Assembly (NCBI GenBank): GCA_963713825.1
Contig: CAVQNG010000014.1
Coordinates: 128,001 to 192,000 of the forward strand
Direction of reading: 5' to 3'
DNA from: an uncultured Acidobacteriota bacterium
GTDB lineage: Bacteria; Acidobacteriota; Thermoanaerobaculia; Multivoradales; JAHEKO01
DNA: 64,000 bases
Below the pieces are notes generated by a model. That model was not told the DNA's origin and did not search any database. It saw only the letters and a list, made by a program, of their open reading frames with translations. This document shows, piece by piece, positions 2-45,793 of this stretch. The position numbers and the translations under genes are program-made. Numbering within the stretch: the first letter of the stretch is position 1; each line of letters begins with the position of its first letter.

Positions 2-328
2 GCCGCGGTCGTCTGCTTGCCGATGGCGTTCCCAGTGGCCGCCAGCACTTCCACCAACTGGCTGCTGATCAGCTACCTCGGAGTCGTTCAGGTCGGTCTG
101 GCCTACGTGATTTTCACTCGTGCCTTGGGGAGACTCCCCGCCCTGGAGGTCTCGCTGCTGCTGTTGATCGAGCCTGTGCTCAATCCGCTGTGGGCCTGGT
201 TGCTTCACGGCGAAACCCCAGGACTCGGTGCGCGCCTGGGGGGACTGTTGATTCTGCTGGCTACGGCAGCGGCGAGCCTGCTGGGAGCTCGTCAGTCTGG
301 AGTGTCATCTTCGACGACCGGGCAGTGA
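2..328 (+). CDS. DMT/EamA family transporter, C-terminal part (5' truncated)
   Basis: Frame is open from the window edge. Hydrophobic helices and the LIEPVLNPLWAWLLHGE motif are typical of the EamA C-terminus. Confidence 0.85.
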   Translation, partial: AAVVCLPMAFPVAASTSTNWLLISYLGVVQVGLAYVIFTRALGRLPALEVSLLLLIEPVLNPLWAWLLHGETPGLGARLGGLLILLATAAASLLGARQSGVSSSTTGQ

Positions 329-996
329 CGATCTCTTCTTGCAGAGAGATCCTGCTTGACGTGATGTTTGAATTCCTGCGGGTCGGCATTACATTCGAAG
401 CTCGCCCTATAGGTGGGGATGTCCACTTCTTCGAGATTCATCCGTAGGGTCTGGAATGGGCGGGGCAAGTGCTGACCCGGCACTTGGACGTGATGCAGTC
501 CACCGCTGTAGGCGATGAGCATCTTGCCTTCGGGAATCGCAGCGAGGATGTCAGCGATACCTCCCCTGACGGTCATCGGATTGCCGTGCCGGTCGAGACC
601 GTCGGCTCGTTTCATTCGACCCTCGGGAAGAATGATGATCATGACGTCTTCAGTGACCCTGTCCAGAACCGCCTTCCAGGTGTGATCCGCCTGACGGGTG
701 ATAGGCAACATGTGCGGGGCCAACAGCCTGAAGAACCGACCTACCAATGGTCGATTGATGGTCTTCTCGGCGATTGGCACCATGGCATGCCCCGAGATTC
801 TCCACAGGAAGCTGAGTGGGACCCCGCCTGCATACAACCATTCGAAAAGGCTTGTGTGATTGAGCATCGTGAGCACCTTGTAGGGCCCCCATGGGTGCTC
901 GGGAACGGGCTCGATCCAGCGAAAATCGAAGCGGTAGAAGATCCGGGTACCGACCCAGATCAGGAAGAGGACAAAGAAATTGAAGATCCTTCGCAC
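292..996 (-). CDS. Lysophospholipid/PlsC-like acyltransferase
   Basis: NHTSLFE (HxxxxD/E) and ILPEGRM motifs, with an N-terminal hydrophobic segment. Confidence 0.75.
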   Translation of the reverse strand: MRRIFNFFVLFLIWVGTRIFYRFDFRWIEPVPEHPWGPYKVLTMLNHTSLFEWLYAGGVPLSFLWRISGHAMVPIAEKTINRPLVGRFFRLLAPHMLPITRQADHTWKAVLDRVTEDVMIIILPEGRMKRADGLDRHGNPMTVRGGIADILAAIPEGKMLIAYSGGLHHVQVPGQHLPRPFQTLRMNLEEVDIPTYRASFECNADPQEFKHHVKQDLSARRDRHCPVVEDDTPD

Positions 997-1146
997 GTCG
1001 GAAAGAGTTCTAGTGGTCAGTCCATTGGAGTTGGTGCGGTTGACAGAGCACTCCCGAAGCCGGTTGTCGAATCTCGGAAGTTTCTCACATCTTGGGTATA
1101 GCTCCTGAATGGAGCCGTGCCATCGTGCGGTAGGATACCGCCTGCC

Positions 1147-1935
1147 ATGATCAAGATCGATCTTTCAGGAAAACGCTACCTGGTGATGGGTGTCGCCAAC
1201 AAACGCAGCCTCGGCTGGGCGATCGCCGACCAACTTCGAGAGGCCGGCGCAGAGCTGGCATTCACCTATCAGGCCGAACGGCTGCGCGGTGAGCTCGAGA
1301 AGCTGACCGCCGACATGCCTGGGACGCTGCTGTATCAGTGCGATGTGACCGACGAGGCGGAGCTCGACGCGGCCTTCTCGTCGCTCGAGGGGAGCTGGGG
1401 AGGCCTGGACGGCATCGTCCATGCGATCGCCTTCGCGCCGCGAGCCGCCATGGAGGGGCGATACATCGACACCTCTCGGGACGACTGGTTGATGGCACTG
1501 GAGATCTCTGCGTTTTCGCTGGTCTCAGTGGCCAGGAAGGCGGAGCCTCTACTGGGGGAGGGAGCCGGAATCGTCACGTTGAGTTACTACGCAGCCGAAA
1601 AAGTGGTCCCCAAGTACAACGTGATGGCGATCGCCAAGAGTGCCCTGGAGGCCAGTGTCCGCTACCTGGCTTACGAGCTGGGGCCCAAAGGCGTGCGTGT
1701 CAACGCAGTCTCGGCGGGACCGGTCCGAACCGTGGCGGCGCGTAGCATCCCGGGCTTCGTGAAGCTCTTCAACCGCTTCGCCGAAGTGGCGCCGCTAGGT
1801 CGCAATATCACTCACGAGGAAGTGGGGCAGCTCGGTCTCTTCTTGCTGTCGCCGATGTCGTCCGGCATTACTGGAGAGGTCGTTTACGTCGACGCTGGTT
1901 TCCACACCATGGGGATGGAAATCCCCAGCGAGTAG
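1147..1935 (+). CDS. fabI: Enoyl-ACP reductase
   Basis: GVANKRSLGWAIA, HAIAFAP, catalytic YNVMAIAK and VNAVSAGPVRT motifs. ATG at 1147 chosen as start. Confidence 0.95.
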   Translation: MIKIDLSGKRYLVMGVANKRSLGWAIADQLREAGAELAFTYQAERLRGELEKLTADMPGTLLYQCDVTDEAELDAAFSSLEGSWGGLDGIVHAIAFAPRAAMEGRYIDTSRDDWLMALEISAFSLVSVARKAEPLLGEGAGIVTLSYYAAEKVVPKYNVMAIAKSALEASVRYLAYELGPKGVRVNAVSAGPVRTVAARSIPGFVKLFNRFAEVAPLGRNITHEEVGQLGLFLLSPMSSGITGEVVYVDAGFHTMGMEIPSE

Positions 1936-1947
1936 CCGGAACCGAAG

Positions 1948-3042
1948 CTACTCTTTTCGACGCAGCGCTTCGTAGTGCTCGATGCGTTTGGAGAGCAGGT
2001 TCTTCTCCATCGCCAGACCGGCCTGGAGGATGAGAAGCTCCAGTTCCTCCAGCCAACCGCTACTGGCACCCTCTGCAAGCTGGTCCCCGTACAAGACGAG
2101 CAAGACCTGATCGTTGACGGTCAGCGGTACCGCAAGGGACTCGCCGTCCGCTGACCCTCCGAGCGCAGCCAGAATGCTGTGGTTCCATTCGGTGTCGGAG
2201 AGAATCTCGAGGACGGCCTCTTTGCGTTCCGCCGCCTCGCTCAAAATCGAGGCCTGATCTAGCGGAATCATCAACTGGCGCAGACGTGTTTCGGCCTGCT
2301 CGTCACTCGAGTCCATACCGAATTGGCCCATGACCCCAAAGCCGTCCAGACGCACGACGAAGAAGATGCCGCGGCCAAAAAGGTCCTGGGCGAAGCTGAG
2401 GATCTTCTGAGTTATCTCGCCAGTGAACTCGGGTGAACGGATCTCTCCCATGATGGACTTCAGGGAAGTGAGATCGCGATTCGAAGGCTCGGCCCCGATG
2501 GAAGCGAGCTCGATTTCGCCCGTTTCCGCGAGATCTGCTTCCTCCAAACGTGCTGCGAGCTCCGACAAGACTGCGTCGGTTTCGAGGCCTTCCCTGATTA
2601 GAAAATCAGCGGCATCGACTTCGATCTCACCGTAGTCGGAGAGCTTGACCGGGTCGAACTTGAAGAAGCCGCTCTTCCAGGTCATGAACTCGAGAATGAC
2701 CTTCTCGGTCTGCTGGTGGACGATGCGCTCCAGGGTCGCTTCATCGACAGCGTCCATTTCTCGCAGGATACTGCCGAGGCGCTGTTCGTGATCAGCGAGG
2801 TGCTGGAGCTCCAGGGCCGAGGTGAGTTGAGTCTCGTCGATGATGCGTTGGAGCAGCAGGAGGTTGCCTAGCGTCTGCCGTGCCGAACTGGAGGCTGCGT
2901 AGACGATCATTCCCTCGCGGAAGACGATGATCCCTTCGCGATCTCGCCGCGTCAGCTTCAATTTGCCGGTTTTCTTGGCGTCGGCAATGGCATGCAGAAG
3001 CTCGGGTAGCTCGACTTCATCCAGCTTTCCGACAAGGCTCAT
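1948..3042 (-). CDS. DUF4388 domain protein with C-terminal GAF-like domain
   Basis: N-terminal MSLVGKLDEVELPELL...KTGKL...G.IVFREG and W.SG.F.F; C-terminal AVPLTVNDQVLLVLYGD. Confidence 0.75.
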   Translation of the reverse strand: MSLVGKLDEVELPELLHAIADAKKTGKLKLTRRDREGIIVFREGMIVYAASSSARQTLGNLLLLQRIIDETQLTSALELQHLADHEQRLGSILREMDAVDEATLERIVHQQTEKVILEFMTWKSGFFKFDPVKLSDYGEIEVDAADFLIREGLETDAVLSELAARLEEADLAETGEIELASIGAEPSNRDLTSLKSIMGEIRSPEFTGEITQKILSFAQDLFGRGIFFVVRLDGFGVMGQFGMDSSDEQAETRLRQLMIPLDQASILSEAAERKEAVLEILSDTEWNHSILAALGGSADGESLAVPLTVNDQVLLVLYGDQLAEGASSGWLEELELLILQAGLAMEKNLLSKRIEHYEALRRKE

Positions 3043-3214
3043 GGTGTCTTCGACTCTCGAGGGTGCGTTGGAGCGGGGCAACGCCCGATTCCGGCTCCAG
3101 ATCGCCGGCAGCATACCATCGGAGATCGTAGACTTCCGTGAATTGGTTCACTGGTAGAGGTCACGAGCCCTTTGAGCCTGGGACTGTGCTGATCAGCACT
3201 ATCTGCGGGAGGTA

Positions 3215-3365
3215 CGTCCGGGTGGTCCGCCGGGGGACGGCGTCGGCTACTCAGACTGCGACGGTGGGCCGCCACCTCGTCTCGTCATCGCGCCCCATCT
3301 GCTGTGCTCTATGAAAGACCTTGCGCCGCGCTCGACTCGGCGCCCCCTGTCGAACCACCCGGACG
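3215..3365. repeat. Imperfect long inverted repeat (intergenic hairpin, REP/MITE-like)
   Basis: CGTCCGGGTGGTCCGCCGGGGG (3215-3236) is nearly complementary to CCCCCTGTCGAACCACCCGGACG (3343-3365). The outer 12 bp pair perfectly. Confidence 0.6.
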
Positions 3366-3616
3366 GCCCTCTGGCACCGGTGAGGGTGGTAGGGGCTTAG
3401 GGGCTTGAGGGCGTAGGGGTGAGTCAGCAATCCGATTCTTGCTGTGTCTCGAAGGTGGTAGATCGGGCCATGGGTCTCCCTCGTCGGAGGGGCATGGTCG
3501 GGTGAGGCCGCAGACGGGGGAGATCCCTGGTTCGATCGGCCGTCTCGACCCCCAAGCCCTCAGAGTACTCCCGGCGGAGAGCCGGGCGCCTCAACCCAGG
3601 GCGGGTGGTTGGGGTT

Positions 3617-6600
3617 TCATCGAAAGTCATGGCTGGGGGCCTCGGCGAGGTCGGGAAGGCGCCAGAGCCTGTCGGCCTTGACGGAAAGGGTCCCATCCCG
3701 TTTCTGTAGCACGCCCTCGACAACGAGGCCGGGGGAGCGCACGATGAGCTGCCGGTGCTCTTGGAGCAGAGCGGGCATGACGATGGCCTGGGACATGCCG
3801 CTCTCGTCCTCGAGCGTGAGGAACAGAATGCCTTTGGCTGTTCCCGGCCTTTGGCGCACGGTAACAGCCCCCGCCGTCCGCACCCGTTGACCATTGGGAA
3901 CGCAGTGCAGATCGGCAGCAGGGGTGACTCCCTGTCGGTTCAGGCTCGCACGTAGATGCTCCAGCGGATGGGGCCCGGTCGTCATCCCGGTTCCGGCGTA
4001 GTCGGAGAGGGTCTCGTCGTAGGGGGACATTTCTGGAAGGGGAGAGGCTCTGCCTTCTCCCTCCCGACTCGGGTCCTGGGTCCTGGGTGGGTGGGGGAGC
4101 CCAAGCCCCGGGTCCCACTGCCCAGGACCATTTCCCTCGAAGAGGGGACCGGCGGGGCGGGCTGCGCGGGCTACCTGCCATAGAGCGCCGCGTCGGGTGG
4201 CGCCCAGAGAGGCCAAAGCCCCGATCTCTGCCAGGACATCCAACTCCTCGCGCCGCAGTCGGCAGCGTCGCACCAGATCGTCGGCGTTGGAGAAGGTTCT
4301 ACGCTCCTGGGCCCACTCGATGGCTTCACCGGACTCCTTGCGGAGGCCCCTGACGAAGCGCAGACCGAGTCGGGCAGCACCGACAGGGTCCTGGGTCCTG
4401 GGCCCTGGGTCCTGGGTTCGTGGTGGAGCCCAAGCCCCGAGCCCCAAGCCCGGGTGGGAGGAAGGCGAGGCCCCTTCCTCCCACCGACACTTCCACCCCG
4501 AGTGGTTCACGTCGATGGGGCGAACCTCGACACCGTGACGCTGCGCATCCTTGATCAGCGTGGCGGGGTAATAGAACCCCATGGGCCAGGCATTGAGCAA
4601 CGCGATCAGGAAGGCGGTCGGGTGGTGGGCCTTGAGATAGGCGCTGGCGTAGGCGATCAGTGCGAAGCTGGCGGCGTGGGATTCGGGGAAGCCGTAGAGA
4701 GCAAAGGCGGTGATGGCCTGAACGACCTGCTCCTGAGCCTCGCCGACGATGCCCTTCTTCGTCATGCCACGACGCAGCTTGGCTTCGAGGTCCTGCATCC
4801 TTTCGGCAGAACGCTTGAACCCCATGGCCCGGCGCAGGTCCTCGGCTTCGCCGCCAGTGAACCCGGCGGCCACCATGGCAACACGCAGGATCTGTTCCTG
4901 AAAGAGCAACACTCCCAACGTGCGTTCCAGGATCGGCTGCAAGCTCGGGTGGGCGTAGGTCACCTCCTGGCGCCCCATCCGGCGCTCGAAGTAGGGGTGC
5001 ACCATGCCGCCAACGATGGGTCCAGGTCGAATGATGGCGACCTGGATCACCAGATCGTAGAAGCGGGTAGGAGCGTTGCGGGGTAGAGAGGCCATCTGGG
5101 CGCGGCTTTCTACCTGGAACACGCCAACCGTGTCGGCCCTGCGAAGCATCTCGAAGGTGGTGGGGTCCTCGGGCGGTAGGTGAGCGAGGTCGATCGCGAC
5201 CTTCTCGTGCTGGCGGATGAGCGGGATCGCCTCCTCCAGAGCCTGCAGCATTCCGAGGCCCAGTAGATCGACTTTGATGATCCCCAAATCAGCGCAGTCG
5301 TCTTTGTCCCACTGCACGACCACCCGGTCCTGCATGGCGGCAGGCTCCAGGGGTACGACCTCGTCGAGCCGCCCGGCGGCCATCACCATGCCTCCCGAAT
5401 GCTGCCCCAGGTGCCGTGGCAGGTTCTGGATCTTGCGCCACATCTCGGCGAAGAGCCGAATGCGCGACTCCTCAGGATCGAAGCCGGCGGCCGAAAGCTC
5501 GGTGGAGAGCGATTTGGGGTCGCCACGGCTGGTGTCGTAGCGCCACGTCCCGAGCTGCTTGGCGAGGCGATTCACCTGCTCCGCCGAGTAACCCAGCGCC
5601 TTGGCCACTTCCCGCGCCGCCGAGCGGTCCCGGTAGGTGATGACATTGGCGGTCATGGCGGCACCGTGGGGCCCATAACGCCGATAGACGTACTGGATGA
5701 CCTTCTCCCTCTGATCCCCGGAGGGCAGATCGAGATCGATGTCGGGCCACTCGCCCCGCTCTTCGGACAGGAAACGTTCGAACAACAGTTCCATCTTCAC
5801 CGGGTCGACGGCGGTGATCGACAGGGCATAGCAGACGGCGCTATTCGCCGCCGAGCCCCGCCCCTGAGACAGGATTCCCTCCCGCTTGCAGAACTGCACG
5901 ATGTCCCAGACGATCAGGAAGTAGCCGGCGAGATCGAGCTTGTCGATCATGGCGAGCTCTTTGCCGATCTGGTCCTGACTGCGGCCTGTGAGTGGGCGAA
6001 AGCGACTGCGAGCACTGTTCCAGGTGATGTGCCGCAGGTAGGACATGGGCGTTTCGCCGGGTGGAACGGGGTAGTCGGGAAAGCGATAGCCGAGATCGGC
6101 CAGGGTGAAGTCGAGCTGCTGGGCCAACTCATAGCTGCCGACGAGAGCCTCTGGGTGATCGGCGAACAGTCGATGCATCTCCGCCGCGCCTTTCAGGTGT
6201 CGCTCCCGGTTGGCGGCAAGCCGTTGTCCGGCGGCATCGAGGTAGGTGTGGTGACGGATGCAGGTGAGGATGTCGTGCAGCCTCTTGTCTTCGTCTCGGG
6301 CGTAGCGCACTGCGTTGGTGGCGACGAGGGGGAGGTCGAGCTGTCGTGCCAGGTCAACGAGTGCCTGGTTGCGATGCTCCTCGTGCCGCAGTCGGTGTCG
6401 TTGGAGCTCGATGTGGACCCGCCCCTCGAAAAGACGAGACAGGTTGAGGAGCTCGCGCCGGGCCGAGTCGGCGCCACTGGTTTCCAAGGTGTGGGCCAGC
6501 AGCGCCTCGTCTCCGCCGGTGAGGCAGTGGAGCCCGGCGCTGTGCTGCTCGAGGTCCTGCCAAGCGACGCGAGCCTCACCCTTGGGTCGGTCTCGAGCTG

Positions 6601-7252
6601 CAGCGGTCAGCAAACGGCAGAGATTGCGGTAGCCGGTGCGATTGCCGACGAGCAGGGAGAGACGGACTTCAGGGCCTGGGTCCTGGGTCCTGGGCCCTGG
6701 GGGGGTGGGGGAGCCCAAGCCCCGAGCCCCAAGCCCTGGTGGGGTGAGGGGGGACACGACCACCTCCGCGCCGACGATGGCCTTGATCCCTGCTTGGCGG
6801 GCTGCCTGGTAGAAGCGGGGTGCGCCGTAGACACCGTTGCGGTCCAGCAGAGCGACGGCGTCGAGATTCAGGTCGCAGGCTCTCTGAATCAGGTCCTCGG
6901 GCAGCGAGGCGCCATCCAGGAACGAGAAGGCGGAAGCGGTGCGAAGCTCGGCGTAAGGCAGCGGCGCGCTCGCCCTCTTGCTACCGCTCGAGGATGTCGC
7001 GCCTGAAGGTCTTGGGTCCTGGGTCCTGGGTCCTGGGTGGGAGGGGGAGCCCGAGCCCCGGGTCCCAAGCCGGGATGGGTGGGTGGGAGTGTAGTTCCTT
7101 TGTCGCAGTTTCTCCTTGCGGGCTCCGGGGGACAGGTATCCGGGTGTCCGCTGGTTCGCCAGGCTGGCGAAATCGATGGTAGGAGCCGTGGTTTCCCGGC
7201 TCTTCTCGGGGCTCGGGGATTCGGTCGGTTTGGCAGGTGGCTTGTCAGTCAT
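3617..7252 (-). CDS. dnaE2: Error-prone DNA polymerase DnaE2 (ImuC)
   Basis: PHP-like start YAELRTASAFSFLDGAS, GRGSAANS, catalytic PDIDLD and KVDLLGL, YGFPESHAASFA, an OB domain, and the C-terminal SHDFR signature. ATG at 7252 overlaps the imuB stop (ATGACTGA). Confidence 0.95.
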   Translation of the reverse strand: MTDKPPAKPTESPSPEKSRETTAPTIDFASLANQRTPGYLSPGARKEKLRQRNYTPTHPSRLGTRGSGSPSHPGPRTQDPRPSGATSSSGSKRASAPLPYAELRTASAFSFLDGASLPEDLIQRACDLNLDAVALLDRNGVYGAPRFYQAARQAGIKAIVGAEVVVSPLTPPGLGARGLGSPTPPGPRTQDPGPEVRLSLLVGNRTGYRNLCRLLTAAARDRPKGEARVAWQDLEQHSAGLHCLTGGDEALLAHTLETSGADSARRELLNLSRLFEGRVHIELQRHRLRHEEHRNQALVDLARQLDLPLVATNAVRYARDEDKRLHDILTCIRHHTYLDAAGQRLAANRERHLKGAAEMHRLFADHPEALVGSYELAQQLDFTLADLGYRFPDYPVPPGETPMSYLRHITWNSARSRFRPLTGRSQDQIGKELAMIDKLDLAGYFLIVWDIVQFCKREGILSQGRGSAANSAVCYALSITAVDPVKMELLFERFLSEERGEWPDIDLDLPSGDQREKVIQYVYRRYGPHGAAMTANVITYRDRSAAREVAKALGYSAEQVNRLAKQLGTWRYDTSRGDPKSLSTELSAAGFDPEESRIRLFAEMWRKIQNLPRHLGQHSGGMVMAAGRLDEVVPLEPAAMQDRVVVQWDKDDCADLGIIKVDLLGLGMLQALEEAIPLIRQHEKVAIDLAHLPPEDPTTFEMLRRADTVGVFQVESRAQMASLPRNAPTRFYDLVIQVAIIRPGPIVGGMVHPYFERRMGRQEVTYAHPSLQPILERTLGVLLFQEQILRVAMVAAGFTGGEAEDLRRAMGFKRSAERMQDLEAKLRRGMTKKGIVGEAQEQVVQAITAFALYGFPESHAASFALIAYASAYLKAHHPTAFLIALLNAWPMGFYYPATLIKDAQRHGVEVRPIDVNHSGWKCRWEEGASPSSHPGLGLGAWAPPRTQDPGPRTQDPVGAARLGLRFVRGLRKESGEAIEWAQERRTFSNADDLVRRCRLRREELDVLAEIGALASLGATRRGALWQVARAARPAGPLFEGNGPGQWDPGLGLPHPPRTQDPSREGEGRASPLPEMSPYDETLSDYAGTGMTTGPHPLEHLRASLNRQGVTPAADLHCVPNGQRVRTAGAVTVRQRPGTAKGILFLTLEDESGMSQAIVMPALLQEHRQLIVRSPGLVVEGVLQKRDGTLSVKADRLWRLPDLAEAPSHDFR
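4071..4129. repeat. Heptamer-built hairpin element, copy D (inside dnaE2)
   Basis: (GGGTCCT)2-GGGTGGGTGGGGGAG-CCCAAGC-CCCGGGT-CCCACTG-CCCAGGA. Confidence 0.85.
4386..4460. repeat. Heptamer-built hairpin element, copy C (inside dnaE2)
   Basis: GGGTCCT GGGTCCT GGGCCCT GGGTCCT GGG...GGAG-CCCAAGC-CCCGAGC-CCCAAGC-CCGGGTGGGAG. Confidence 0.9.
6672..6753. repeat. Heptamer-built hairpin element, copy B (inside dnaE2)
   Basis: GGGCCT GGGTCCT GGGTCCT GGGCCCT GGGGGGGTGGGGGAG-CCCAAGC-CCCGAGC-CCCAAGC-CCTGGTGGGG. Confidence 0.9.
7008..7088. repeat. Heptamer-built hairpin element, copy A (inside the dnaE2 N-terminal extension)
   Basis: GGTCTT (GGGTCCT)3 GGGTGGGAGGGGGAG-CCCGAGC-CCCGGGT-CCCAAGC-CGGGATGGG. 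Confidence 0.9.
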
Positions 7253-8762
7253 AAATACCGTCGGCGTACCACTCGCCGGTGGCGCGCTGGAAGAAGATTC
7301 GGAAGATGCCGCCATCGGCGAGCTCGACATCCCAGTAGTCGCGTTCCACGGGTTTCTCCGACCACCACTCTTCCTCCATGCTCCATGGCCCCGAGGCCAC
7401 CTTCACGCGTCCCTGGATGCGGGGCCTCTTGGCCGAGCTCTCGCTGAGGATGGAGAGGATCTCCCGGGGAGAGGCGAGATGGGAGATCACCTCGAGGGGT
7501 ACCGGGGGTCGCAGCGTGCGTATGGCGAGCAGGCCCCGCCCCACTTGTTGTTCAGGGCGCACCTCGGGAGGAGGAGGGGGGGCGTACTCCACAAGGGCAG
7601 AACGCTCGGGACGGTGGCCGTTTACTGTCCGAGGTGAGCCGACGCGCTCGGGGCCGAGCAGAGCGAAGAGACGTGCCAGCGTTGTGGCCAGCTTGTCGGG
7701 AGACAGGGCGGGAGGACCGAAGAGGGAAAGCTGAGCCTCTCTTGGTCGATCGGGGTGGGCGACGATCGTGAATCCGGTGACTGGCGCAGCAGGTGACTCT
7801 GCCTCCAGATCGAGGCGAATCAGTGTCAGTAGGGTCTTGGCCTCTCGGGTAGGGGCCGGCAGCTGGATGGTGCGGAGGTGGTGACCATCGGGCTCGAGGC
7901 GCAGCGATGTGTCGAGGCGCGCACAGGCCAACCCCCGACTTTCGAGTCGTTGGCAGAGACGCTTCAAGGCCGCACCGGCCACGAAGAGAAAGGGCTCCAG
8001 GTTGACCAATGGCCACTCGAGCTCCATGCCCTCGGCAAAGTGTGGCGGCGGTTGATAGGGAACGAGGGGGCGAGAGTCCAACCCGCGGGCCTTCTCATGC
8101 AGCTGTCGGCCTGTCTCTCCGAGACGGCTGGCGACCTCGTTCTTGGGCAGCCGGGCGAAGTCACCGACAGAGCGGATTCCCCAGCGCTCGAGGGTGTCGA
8201 GTATTTCGAACTCGGCGGCGAGGCTGCGCAGGGGCAAGGGGGCGAGAAAGCTCGCTTCTTCACCTGCGGGCACCCGGTTGGGTGAGTCTGGAAGCTCTGC
8301 CGCCACCCGTGCCGCCAGCTTGCTCGAGGCGATGCCCACCCAGGTGGTCAAGCCAGCCTTGTCGGTCGTTATTGTCAGGGCATGTCCGAGGTCCTGTTCG
8401 GGAGAGTCTCCCGGGAAATGGCGATCGAGGCCGTCCAGCTCGAGGTAGGCAATACCGTCTCCTGCGTCCTCGACTCGGGGAGAAAAACTCTCGGCGATCT
8501 CCAACAGGCTTTCCTGAGTCGCTTTTTCACAGGACATGTCGCGAGCTCGAACGGTGAGATTGGGCAGCAGGGCCCGAGCCTGGGGAAGGGACATCCCGGG
8601 GCGAATGCCGACCTGGCGAGCCCTGCGAGCGGCAGCGACAACCCGGGCAGCATTGCTGTTGCCTTGAAAGATGGCTACGGCCTCTCCTCGCAGCTCGGGT
8701 TCACTGCGTAGACGAGCGGCGAGAGGGAACAGGGGGGTGAAGAGGCAGGCGATTCGGGGCAT
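7245..8762 (-). CDS. imuB: ImuB, catalytically inactive Y-family polymerase
   Basis: Y-family pattern (GIRPGMSLPQARAL, FSPRVE), beta-clamp motif QLSLF, C-terminal GPW..EEEWW...RDYWDV. Lies directly upstream of dnaE2. Confidence 0.92.
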   Translation of the reverse strand: MPRIACLFTPLFPLAARLRSEPELRGEAVAIFQGNSNAARVVAAARRARQVGIRPGMSLPQARALLPNLTVRARDMSCEKATQESLLEIAESFSPRVEDAGDGIAYLELDGLDRHFPGDSPEQDLGHALTITTDKAGLTTWVGIASSKLAARVAAELPDSPNRVPAGEEASFLAPLPLRSLAAEFEILDTLERWGIRSVGDFARLPKNEVASRLGETGRQLHEKARGLDSRPLVPYQPPPHFAEGMELEWPLVNLEPFLFVAGAALKRLCQRLESRGLACARLDTSLRLEPDGHHLRTIQLPAPTREAKTLLTLIRLDLEAESPAAPVTGFTIVAHPDRPREAQLSLFGPPALSPDKLATTLARLFALLGPERVGSPRTVNGHRPERSALVEYAPPPPPEVRPEQQVGRGLLAIRTLRPPVPLEVISHLASPREILSILSESSAKRPRIQGRVKVASGPWSMEEEWWSEKPVERDYWDVELADGGIFRIFFQRATGEWYADGIYD

Positions 8763-8781: not shown

Positions 8782-9600
8782 TCACCCCCCGATGGATGCC
8801 GTTGCAGTGCCGTAGATCAGCGCGGCAGGTGGCTGCAGTCGGAGGACCTCGGTTCGGTTGCCCTGTTGTCGGCGCATTTTCTGCAGAGTGAGGCGGGAAG
8901 AGAGCCCCACCAGAAGTTTGGGCCCCGGAGCAACTCCGGACCACAGAGCCCGACCGTAGTCGGCTTTCACCACACCGGCTGCTGCCGTGCCACTCACCCG
9001 GTAGGGGCTCGAGACGAGAAGTGCCGCCTGATGGCTCTGTGCCGCTTTTGCCAATCGCAGCCAAGAGGCTTCGACACCTCGCCCCCCAGGTACGGGTGGG
9101 TTGCCCAGGTCGACGATGACGAGTGGAAAGCCGCCGGCAAGCAGCACCTCGGCGCTGATCAGGGTCTGTTTCAGATGCCCGGGGCGGGCCCAGAGCAGTC
9201 GCTCGAGATCGACTCCTGCGGTCGCGGCTAGCTGAGGGTCGAAAGCGTCCCCCAGGTCTACCAATGCCGCCGCTTCTCCAGCCCGGGTGGCACTGGCGAG
9301 GGATGCGAGTATGGTGGAGAAGCGGCCGCTCGATTGGCGCCCGATGAGCTCGACGAGCTGCCCCTGCGGTAGCCCACCGACGAGCAGCTGGTCGAGAGCC
9401 GTGGCGGTGGGAAAGGGGGAGGGGAGGGGGGTCGCCGTGCGTTGCTGCACCCACTCGCGGCCACTGTTGAGATGGCTTTGCAGGTGGTGGGGAAGCTTCG
9501 AACGGAAGGTGCCGATCGTCGCAGAAGATCGCCTGGTAGTGGGTTCTGGTTCCTCGAAGGCTTTCTGTGGAGTCGTTGTCAGGGCTTGCGACAATGCCAT
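8782..9600 (-). CDS. imuA: ImuA / RecA-like mutagenesis protein
   Basis: LDQLLVGGLPQGQLVELIG, degenerate Walker A (GRQSSGRFS), AGVDLERLLWARP. First gene of the cassette. Confidence 0.88.
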   Translation of the reverse strand: MALSQALTTTPQKAFEEPEPTTRRSSATIGTFRSKLPHHLQSHLNSGREWVQQRTATPLPSPFPTATALDQLLVGGLPQGQLVELIGRQSSGRFSTILASLASATRAGEAAALVDLGDAFDPQLAATAGVDLERLLWARPGHLKQTLISAEVLLAGGFPLVIVDLGNPPVPGGRGVEASWLRLAKAAQSHQAALLVSSPYRVSGTAAAGVVKADYGRALWSGVAPGPKLLVGLSSRLTLQKMRRQQGNRTEVLRLQPPAALIYGTATASIGG

Positions 9601-45337: not shown

Positions 45338-45793
45338 CTATTGCTCGTGGCTCGTGGAGGTCTCGATCCGGTCTGAGAGGGATTCCGGCATCGAGATCGA
45401 TTCCAGTCCCTCGCCGTCATTCATGATGCAGCAGACAGACGACATGCGACCCCGAGCGACGACCCGGCTGTCCGTCGATATCGTCATGGCGTAGGTCAGG
45501 GAGCTCTGGCCCTTTCTCGCGATGCGCAGGTGAATGTCCAGCACATCGCCGTAGTGTGCGGGGCTCAGATATTGGCAGGACACCTCGACTCGCGGCCAGC
45601 CGATGGTTCTGCCGTCCCGCGTGGCGAATGCGTCGGATCCCAGGCTGCGAAGGAACTCGTGCTCGGCGGTCTCCATGAACACCAGATAGCGGGCGAAGTG
45701 GACGATGCCACCCATGTCTGCGTCCGCGAACTCGACTCGCCGGGTGGTGCGGAACTCACTGACGGGCTGCGAGTTTCGATCGCGATTGTCCAT
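45338..45793 (-). CDS. Acyl-CoA thioesterase (YbgC/4HBT family)
   Basis: RRVEFADADMGGIVHFARY. Confidence 0.88.
   Translation of the reverse strand: MDNRDRNSQPVSEFRTTRRVEFADADMGGIVHFARYLVFMETAEHEFLRSLGSDAFATRDGRTIGWPRVEVSCQYLSPAHYGDVLDIHLRIARKGQSSLTYAMTISTDSRVVARGRMSSVCCIMNDGEGLESISMPESLSDRIETSTSHEQ

Follow-up and report, generated by a model that had tools for sequence, protein, structure and literature searches.

We analyzed a 64,000-nucleotide stretch of DNA from an uncultured Acidobacteriota bacterium (contig CAVQNG010000014.1, positions 128,001 to 192,000; hereafter, the window) and found that its dnaE2 (imuC) gene, which encodes an error-prone DNA polymerase, carries four in-frame elements built of tandem 7-nt units. 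In our judgment, these elements are probably (roughly 60%) cargo-less "array hairpins" that resemble intervening sequences (IVSs) and are tolerated as disordered loops of a functional ImuC/DnaE2. An array hairpin, as we use the term, would consist of a short spacer between two runs of stop-free 7-nt units, the runs being opposed in direction and quasi-complementary. Because every frame through the elements is free of stops and translation turns them into disordered loop peptides rich in Pro and Gly, dnaE2 would be able to tolerate them. Since an opposed-array bracket also encloses this lineage's PF05635/TIGR02436 ("23S rRNA IVS protein") genes, the dnaE2 elements look like an empty IVS-like cassette. 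The source genome comprises 38 contigs and 5.42 Mb (61% G+C, 96% completeness). The host gene, identified from the list of open reading frames (ORFs) and their translations, and its four elements are as follows.

3617..7330, minus strand: dnaE2/imuC, error-prone DNA polymerase, 1237 aa (NCBIfam NF004225)
7008..7088, minus strand: element 1, in the N-terminal extension (residues about 82-108 of protein P0001); peptide HPSRLGTRGSGSPSHPGPRTQDPRP; core phase 2
6672..6753, minus strand: element 2, in the PHP-domain loop flanked by GAEVVV and RLSLLVGN; peptide LTPPGLGARGLGSPTPPGPRTQDPGP; core phase 2
4386..4460, minus strand: element 3, in a loop flanked by CRWEE and AARLGLRF, where the helix-hairpin-helix (HhH) region begins; peptide SSHPGLGLGAWAPPRTQDPGPRTQDP; core phase 1
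4071..4129, minus strand: element 4, in the linker preceding the OB fold; peptide WDPGLGLPHPPRTQDPS; core phase 0

An earlier note, drawn up from the sequence alone, had located the elements in the N-terminal extension, the PHP loop, a loop preceding RLGLRFVRG, and the linker ahead of the OB fold, and all four were found there. The layout it gave for the plus strand was also accurate: each element reads (GGGTCCT)2-4, a G-rich spacer with a terminal GGAG, and CCCAAGC/CCCGAGC units. A correction applies to the strand of the gene. Since dnaE2 itself lies on the minus strand (ORF 3617..7330), its coding strand reads (GGGGCTY)n, spacer, and (AGGACCC)n, giving GLG...PRTQDP peptides. In full, the coding-strand layout is a C-rich lead-in, (GGGGCTY)2-4, the C-rich spacer GCTCCCCC(A/T)CCCACC, which is more diverged in element 3, and (AGGACCC)2-4. 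The elements measure 59-82 bp, and translation bore out both these peptides and the claim that none of the four breaks the ORF; nor does either heptamer, judged directly from the unit sequences, yield a stop in any of the six frames.

Results from Tandem Repeats Finder (TRF) placed period-7 arrays in the window exactly at the four elements, with tracts of 2-4.6 units, plus one 2.1-copy row of GCTCGTG at 45343. At up to one mismatch, the double heptamer GGGTCCTGGGTCCT had eight matches in the window, all in dnaE2 (expected, 0.07; 0 of 100 shuffles reached eight). Four 50-nt cores aligned on a GAGCCC anchor were 82-90% identical without gaps, and a non-repetitive spacer of 14-15 nt is common to all four copies. 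The arms are about 11-13 nt apart in elements 2 and 3 by TRF and equally close in elements 1 and 4. The core GGGCTCC occurs at codon phases 2, 2, 1, and 0 across the four copies, so all three frames are used, and the peptides around it depend on the frame (GSPSHPGP, GSPTPPGP, AWAPP, and GLPHPP), the rest of each peptide being similar. A core read in three codon phases identifies these as DNA-level repeats, in line with the description of them as coding-neutral DNA; a protein-level repeat was rejected on account of the three reading frames and the different peptides found in congeners. With up to three mismatches, the 21-nt spacer core had four matches in dnaE2 and one unrelated match elsewhere (contig C3) in the 5.42-Mb assembly. 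The spacer-bearing composite is private to dnaE2 within the 5.4-Mb genome. The ends of the four elements, read directly from the sequence, carry no GTAG/CTAC or CGTC/GACG tag, and Rfam gave 0 matches at gathering scores over the whole window.

The sites occupied by the elements are loops of the polymerase that are usually much shorter. Across 97 orthologs (96 distinct genes), median loop lengths at sites 1-4 were 9, 13, 7, and 9 aa, compared with 43, 30, 32, and 31 aa here; the elements thus lie in lineage-specific expansions of otherwise short loops, in agreement with the earlier note, which had described them as variable surface loops of DnaE2. Loop alignments were made with 24 orthologs from the same family and order, of which L023 was a wrong-frame ORF and was ignored. 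Among the remaining 23 readable sequences, sites 1 and 4 were short, site 2 was variable, and site 3 was empty (CRWEE-GAxRLGL) in about eight. Site 2 was also a gapped loop in an alignment to Taq Pol III alpha. In an AlphaFold2 model of residues 115-1237, sites 2, 3, and 4 scored <50 in predicted local distance difference test (pLDDT) and were positioned between two strands, two strands, and two helices, respectively; since the mean pLDDT was 60 and large parts of the core were also <50, the model was used only for the secondary-structure context of the loops.

Outside these loops, the gene has the hallmarks of a working polymerase. Its product matched the NF004225 model ("error-prone DNA polymerase") with 1258.8 bits (cut-off, 939) over profile positions 4-1047 of 1047, and contains the Pfam domains PHP, DNA_pol3_alpha, finger, HHH_6, and OB. 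The ratio of nonsynonymous to synonymous substitution rates (dN/dS) outside the loops was 0.076-0.11 relative to four congeners (dS 0.46-0.51). On these sequence comparisons, the dnaE2 host gene is functional and under strong purifying selection outside the loops.

The elements are also found in DNA assembled independently of this genome. The dnaE2 gene was present in 19 DNA runs from about 12 studies (sediment metagenomes), and Logan contigs from three DNA runs of different studies covered each element with 0 gaps and few substitutions at most. In run X16, record 11 (4182-4696) spans element 3 with 0 differences, and record 16 (6647-7083) spans element 2, as well as element 1 up to 7083, with 0 gaps. 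Records 28 (6049-6964) and 24 (3890-4309) of run X9 cover elements 2 and 4, respectively, and record 2 of run X1 (3773-4454) covers element 4, all with 0 gaps. An assembly artifact, which the earlier note had named as a possible undoing of its claim, is therefore ruled out, since independent contigs reproduce the elements gaplessly. Contigs often end at the elements, as is expected of repeats in de Bruijn assembly. One X9 contig has a joint, 4378->4476, that skips 97 letters; since this is a single contig and one of its sides measures only 28, it was rejected as evidence of a strain without element 3. RNA run X20 had six contigs on the region, 0 of which bridged an element. Record 17 (4170-4392), the one contig on the gene, stops at element 3, where DNA contigs also stop.

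The public relatives of this dnaE2 are metagenome-assembled genomes (MAGs) of Thermoanaerobaculia and other Acidobacteriota. Four congeners with 85-89% protein identity carry other short-period repeats at the same four sites, as listed here.

(GGGGTCCT)n..(AAGACCTC)n: unit pair found at up to three sites per gene
(TGGGGCAR)n..(CACTGCCT)n: unit pair
(TAAGGGCT)n..(CCCTATGC)n: unit pair
(CACTGCCY)n: array in long runs
L002, sites 2 and 4: GTAG-type repetitive extragenic palindrome (REP) hairpin flanked by octamers and (CCCAGGA)2

The closest congener, L002, is without most of the insert at sites 1 and 3. Site 2 of L005 holds the same composite as element 2, with 3 differences in about 86 nt (about 96% conserved), a divergence far below that expected from the dS of 0.46 for the gene. 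Comparison with the congeners showed neither a target-site duplication nor a clean empty site at the element boundaries, and site 1 of L002 keeps repeat remnants. At the species level, the arrays at these fixed sites are thus exchanged for arrays of other units, mostly in opposed and nearly complementary pairs, while the complementarity of the arms persists.

Period-7/8 arrays in the four loops are not limited to this genus: they were found in 23 of the 96 distinct dnaE2 genes and in 18 of the 91 outside the genus. In this census, 79 of 102 dnaE2 arrays fell within the four loops, a region amounting to 5.2% of ORF length. Judged from record titles, the carriers come from several Acidobacteriota classes and also comprise one MAG each of Acidimicrobiia, "Deltaproteobacteria", and Binataceae. 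By comparison, 16 loci of the paralog dnaE1 (62 kb, four of them from the genus) had 0 period-7/8 arrays. In five further genomes, dnaE1 loci had 0, 1, 2, 0, and 0 arrays (3 total) and dnaE2 loci 6, 4, 5, 4, and 12 (31), the dnaE2 side being biased because these genomes were chosen for their dnaE2 arrays. Loops 2-4 of dnaE2 from L073 and L092 (Bryobacterales) are 70-108 aa long and hold clusters of GTAG-type REPs (GTAGGGACCGGCAATCCTGCCGGTCC..) and 7/8-mers, an indication that small repeats of several kinds accumulate in dnaE2 loops.

Two explanations can be weighed against this record. The first is a phase-variable switch, in which adding or losing a single 7-nt unit would change the frame and thereby switch the mutator polymerase off or on. 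Although a 7-nt unit is not divisible by three and the tracts comprise 2-4.6 units, all five congeners and all 23 array-bearing orthologs kept in the set are in frame, and no indels at the elements were listed among the Logan contigs of the three DNA runs, contigs being prone to drop rare variants. Moreover, the tracts are short and in mid-gene, and dN/dS is 0.08-0.11. We regard such a switch as extremely improbable. The second explanation is a mobile element of the miniature inverted-repeat transposable element (MITE), REP, or Rickettsia palindromic element (RPE) type, placed by four independent insertions through a trans-acting transposase; the earlier note had likewise proposed a non-autonomous transposing family. 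In-frame palindromic REPs are described in dnaE2 of four species in the available part of one study (PMC3733652), L002 has its GTAG-type REP at sites 2 and 4, and the genome contains both a GTAG REP family (80 hits) and four weak matches to Y1_Tnp (RAYT-like). However, the composite has no copy outside dnaE2, the elements lack a GTAG or CGTC tag, the target duplication that the note suggested looking for is not visible in comparison with congeners, and no transposase is nearby. A linked mobilizer was not found either: the Y1_Tnp matches are on C3 and C5, with none on contig C14, and a RAYT-type mobilizer was rejected because they show no link to the elements. Insertion by such a mobile element is therefore very unlikely.

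The units themselves belong to a much larger set of repeats. Genome-wide, the two heptamers form 122 arrays of at least two units, and TRF found 178 merged period-7/8 loci (at least 2.8 copies), among which AGGACCC (29 rows), AAGCCCCT (26), and ACGCCCCT (21) are the commonest units. The densest 4-kb bin of the genome for these 178 loci is dnaE2, with 5 loci against about 0.12 expected per 3.7 kb; the density is therefore not uniform, and the enrichment in dnaE2 claimed earlier stands. The arrays are mostly non-coding, 30 of the 178 being flagged in frame by a crude, home-made codon-score test, and many lie just upstream of start codons, e.g., ruvA. At C3:747083-747110, C3:1080927-1080961, and C3:1081636-1081663, (AGGACCC)n stops just a few bases short of start codons (among them that of the ruvA-like MIGFLHGKV), so that the repeat supplies AGGA in the Shine-Dalgarno position. 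The triple-unit (AGGACCC) matches listed for contig C3 are all on one strand. Triple AGGACCC arrays occurred in five of six genomes of the genus, with a single match among the other 35 searched (a tally that includes G006); a reversed-pattern control of this search was uninformative because the reversed pattern is a rotation of the same repeat. The units of the dnaE2 elements would have been drawn from this genome's own pool of G-rich 7/8-nt tandem arrays, and the four near-identical copies would most likely have arisen by duplication or gene conversion between loops of dnaE2.

The earlier note had suggested looking for enrichment in DNA-repair genes, and this was not borne out, since the other in-frame hosts in this genome are paralogous Ser/Thr kinases. 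A Pkinase domain spans the array in 8 of the 8 tested, and the arrays occupy two loops, before (I/L)HFL(V/T)(M/L)EL and after DFGLAKALD. The array-bearing kinases are located at C3:309943-312123, C3:1773771-1776584, C5:12431-15178, C5:39499-42279, C5:44861-47752, C5:54746-57565, C5:70990-73809, and C25:231928-234405. These paralogs have PD40 or TPR tails, the units differ between them, and some carry a GTAG-type REP hairpin, GGGAGGGGGCAAGCCCCTCCCCTACA.

The genome contains few opposed pairs of arrays: there are four in dnaE2, one at C25:405231-405306, one intergenic at C3:55561-55687, and the bracket of a PF05635 gene. The C25 pair, (GGGGCTT)2..(AGGACCC)6 at C25:405208-405306, directly follows the TGA stop of an MreB/actin-like gene and has the same arm orientation as in dnaE2 with another spacer. 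The PF05635 gene (C3:1082949-1083263, in a cassette at C3:1082850-1083492) is the sole one in the genome, and its bracket consists of G-rich arrays (GGGTCCT and TAGGGGCK) that face (CCCCTACG)n across the gene. This fits the analogy drawn earlier to arrays flanking TIGR02436 genes. The family description of TIGR02436 reportedly mentions flanking heptamers. In 41 related genomes, there were five complete PF05635 genes above cut-off, and all five were bracketed by opposed arrays. Among syntenic PF05635 cassettes (also found in L131 and L133), the arms are of the TAGGGGCG type in G000 and G001 and of the GGGGTCTT type in G004, indicating that both arms changed together. In L129 (G019:C1), positions 1840-2064 hold a 19-copy (CAGTTGG) array and then opposed (CACTGYC) units directly after a PF05635 gene; this was the longest array seen.

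A PF05635 gene was also found within dnaE2 itself. L077, a "Deltaproteobacteria" MAG, has a full PF05635/TIGR02436 gene (6.3e-35 and 7.6e-35; weak Avd match) at 2743-3342, nested in the +1 frame in loop 4 of dnaE2 (192-3863), and the 1224-aa dnaE2 frame stays open through it. Among 30 alternative-frame ORFs in 12 large dnaE2 loops (at least 60 aa), only that of L077 had a Pfam match (1/30).

These observations bear on a simpler explanation, according to which the elements would be passive coding microsatellites. Slipped-strand growth of stop-free 7-nt units in tolerant loops would then have produced the arrays, and the opposed layout and resemblance of the copies would be incidental, with no stem involved. 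Indeed, the units belong to the genome-wide 7/8-nt array family, heptamers are reported to be the commonest class of long simple sequence repeats (SSRs) in prokaryotes (as cited in the available part of PMC4679880), and, as described below, the hairpins are no more stable than shuffled sequences. However, slippage leaves unexplained the common 14-15-nt non-repetitive spacer, found nowhere else in the genome, as well as the concerted change of arms between congeners and lineages and the same bracket around PF05635 genes. We consider passive growth an unlikely source of the elements.

For the array-hairpin interpretation, the complementarity of the arms is of particular interest. We compared 22 adjacent same-period array pairs in dnaE2 loops, scoring inverted identity as one unit against the reverse complement of the other in the best rotation. 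Sixteen pairs reached at least 0.71 unit identity inverted and 4 did so direct. Mean unit identity across the 22 pairs was 0.70 inverted versus 0.50 direct, with 0.574 +/- 0.026 in a partner-shuffle null that mixes genomes of differing base composition; 0 of 2000 shuffles reached the observed value. Site 4 of L075 shows nested mirrored arms of two unit types. The earlier note had suggested that the elements can fold back imperfectly, and minimum-energy RNA folds of the sense strand did contain an in-register hairpin in elements 1-3, with no element more stable than its shuffles.

Several points weigh against our interpretation. Thirteen of the 22 array pairs came from one genus, and the 9 from outside it were divided (inverted better in 5, direct better in 1, and a tie in 3); the mixed base composition of the null adds to this concern. 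In the dnaE2 studied here, the opposed arms are only 5/7 complementary at unit level (0.71). Fold stability did not exceed that of dinucleotide shuffles (z of -0.19 to -0.98 sense and +0.44 to -1.29 antisense), shuffles of a half G-rich, half C-rich sequence being a generous null. A direct tie to rRNA IVSs is lacking, since the 23S rRNA of this genome (C3:45830-48838) contains no 7/8-mer array. The genome has no cargo-bearing copy of the dnaE2 composite, and no PF05635 ORF lies between the arms of the four elements, which are only about 11-13 nt apart. The PF05635 gene nested in dnaE2 of L077 is a single case among 96 genes and has an octamer array on its 3' side only. In addition, the genome-wide division into coding and non-coding arrays comes from a home-made codon-score classifier whose first form overlooked three arrays in dnaE2, their flanks being repeats too. 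Lastly, intragenic conversion is suggested by the similarity of the copies only.

If stems do form, they might act on the polymerase gene. The elements could be RNase III targets in the dnaE2 transcript or G-quadruplex (G4) roadblocks, either of which would lower expression of the mutator polymerase. Consistent with this, the arms stay complementary while the units change, and element 2 is about 96% conserved between species despite a dS of 0.46. In addition, RNase III cuts the IVS stems of PF05635-carrying elements, according to the available part of PMC4990558, and the genome encodes an RNase III gene. There are 9 G3N1-7 x4 motifs in dnaE2 (template strand, 6; coding strand, 3), compared with 365 in the genome (0.067 per kb). 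Every element has a four-G3-tract motif, a candidate for G4 folding, on its plus strand, and three have one on the coding strand as well. G-rich heptamers also form G4 in vitro in Xanthomonas and Nostoc (PMC4692102, available in part). On the other hand, the folds are unexceptional relative to shuffles, distant orthologs function without any insert, and the sole RNA contig on the gene (X20 record 17) stops at element 3 just as DNA contigs do. A regulatory role as the reason for the elements is thus rather improbable.

Returning to the array hairpins, we suggest that a stem would matter in RNA or single-stranded DNA and that the loop peptides would be harmless; RNase III processing, a quadruplex, or hairpin-templated repair may be the use to which the stem is put. 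A broader generalization can be proposed, which we advance tentatively and hold to be doubtful. In it, opposed 7/8-nt array pairs would be the stems of widespread, undescribed, IVS-like selfish elements whose full form carries a PF05635/TIGR02436 gene and which colonize expansion sites of essential macromolecules, the DnaE2/ImuC loops being a preferred landing site across phyla. Use of the stem in RNA (e.g., as an RNase III target) would be what keeps their arms complementary, and each lineage would renew a repeat-encoded, post-transcriptional brake on the mutator polymerase.

The elements are of interest on several counts. They show non-coding repeat DNA becoming protein sequence, with the same 50-nt core in all three frames of one enzyme. 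The dnaE2 gene offers a natural test bed, in that its four defined loops are filled anew, with other repeats, from species to species, an effect specific to dnaE2 as opposed to its paralog dnaE1. The PF05635 "23S rRNA IVS protein" family, which has no function assigned, gains a genomic signature in the opposed-array bracket whose arms change together. If stems do act in RNA, they would represent a new layer of control on SOS mutagenesis.

The neighborhood of dnaE2 may be an imuA-imuB-dnaE2 cassette: a gene of the IMS family adjoins dnaE2, and the putative imuA is sub-threshold (36.5 vs. 150 bits). The likely start of dnaE2 is an ATG at 7252 that overlaps the stop of the upstream gene, and this M is conserved in congeners. 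A dispersed repeat lies on the other side. These features are as follows.

7245..8762, minus strand: imuB-like Y-family polymerase homolog, directly upstream of dnaE2; Pfam IMS 1.8e-22, with matches to NCBIfam Pol IV models below cut-offs only
8782..9600, minus strand: imuA-like RecA-fold gene, a weak assignment (NCBIfam ImuA_translesion 36.5 bits, cut-off 150; RecA model 2.7e-15)
3200..3420 (within 3115-3616), plus strand: one copy of a 68-copy non-coding repeat just downstream of dnaE2, with inverted termini GTCCGGGTGGTCCG / CGAACCACCCGGAC

This repeat copy ends in an octamer array, TAGGGGCT (3390-3419), and is context separate from the four elements. Copies of the 68-copy repeat are about 190 nt or more in length. 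They are usually flanked by heptamers at one end and TAGGGGCK octamers at the opposite end, the G-rich strand being the same for the two; ORFs that span the copies are in differing frames. The GTAG-type REP/REP-doublet family (..GTAGGGGAGCCCCTTGCGGGCTCCC.. + GGGAGGGGGCAAGCCCCTCCCCTACA), whose 80 hits in the genome are mostly intergenic (e.g., C3:73531 and C3:1863494), sometimes lies inside the 68-copy repeat and sometimes in frame in kinases.

In the literature searched, with subscription journals and database comments outside its scope, no description was found of tandem-array hairpins in dnaE2 or of opposed arrays around PF05635 genes. Several known systems nonetheless resemble the elements in part. 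Intervening sequences of 23S rRNA were reportedly treated by Ralph and McClelland in 1993. In the available part of a later study, the 23S rRNA IVS has a PF05635/S23p ORF and its stems are cut by RNase III (Warrier et al., 2016; PMC4990558). The likeness to the present elements lies in complementary termini that enclose, or are able to enclose, a PF05635 gene and in a location at an expansion site of a functional macromolecule. Here, however, the host is protein-coding and requires an insert that remains translated, tandem arrays take the place of unique inverted repeats as arms, and the dnaE2 elements lie outside a 23S rRNA helix and contain no ORF.

A second resemblance is to G-rich heptamer SSRs. 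The GGGNATC repeats of Xanthomonas and Nostoc form G4 in vitro, are mostly intergenic, occur close upstream of ORFs on the antisense strand, and are under-represented in ORFs (Rehm et al., 2015; PMC4692102, as far as that paper was available). Long SSRs, with units of 5-11 nt, were surveyed by Mrazek (2007; cited in the available part of PMC4679880). The present units share with these the tandem G3N4 unit in 2 to several copies, the dispersed and mostly intergenic distribution, the antisense position upstream of starts, and the four-G-tract motif. Judged by what defines long SSRs, the units of the elements are arranged head to tail and belong to a genome-wide family that is mostly intergenic. 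In contrast, the dnaE2 arrays are in frame, form opposed pairs, and are concentrated in one gene; neither the pairing nor the link to a gene is described in the available parts of those papers.

RPEs are palindromic repeats of about 150 bp, with tens of dispersed copies, each encoding a conserved peptide (PMC10969869 and PMC3733652, both available in part). They too are found in frame, in many unrelated genes, with the extra peptide compatible with protein function, whereas the dnaE2 elements, at 59-82 bp, are shorter, use three reading frames, and occur in a single gene. MITEs differ in that no target-site duplication was seen here relative to congeners.

A precedent is provided by REPs. In the part of the study by Di Nocera et al. 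(2013; PMC3733652) that was available, REPs tagged with GTAG or CGTC lie inside ORFs, many of them in replication and repair genes, and some REP-bearing ORFs are the sole REP-modified ORF of their species. Those in dnaE2 occupy residues 934-971 of 1116 in O. terrae, 166-246 of 1196 in S. wittichii, 128-157 of 1153 in R. palustris, and 175-203 of 1262 in E. litoralis; these resemble sites 2 and 4 by relative position only. Like those REPs, the present elements are short repeated DNA with stem-loop potential, situated in frame in an error-prone polymerase gene, and the congener L002 has a GTAG-type REP at two of the four sites. They differ in being made of tandem 7-nt units, in lacking a GTAG/CGTC tag, and in being undispersed, at four sites of one gene. 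The tandem-array hairpins of dnaE2 thus extend the 2013 observation of REPs in dnaE2 (PMC3733652).

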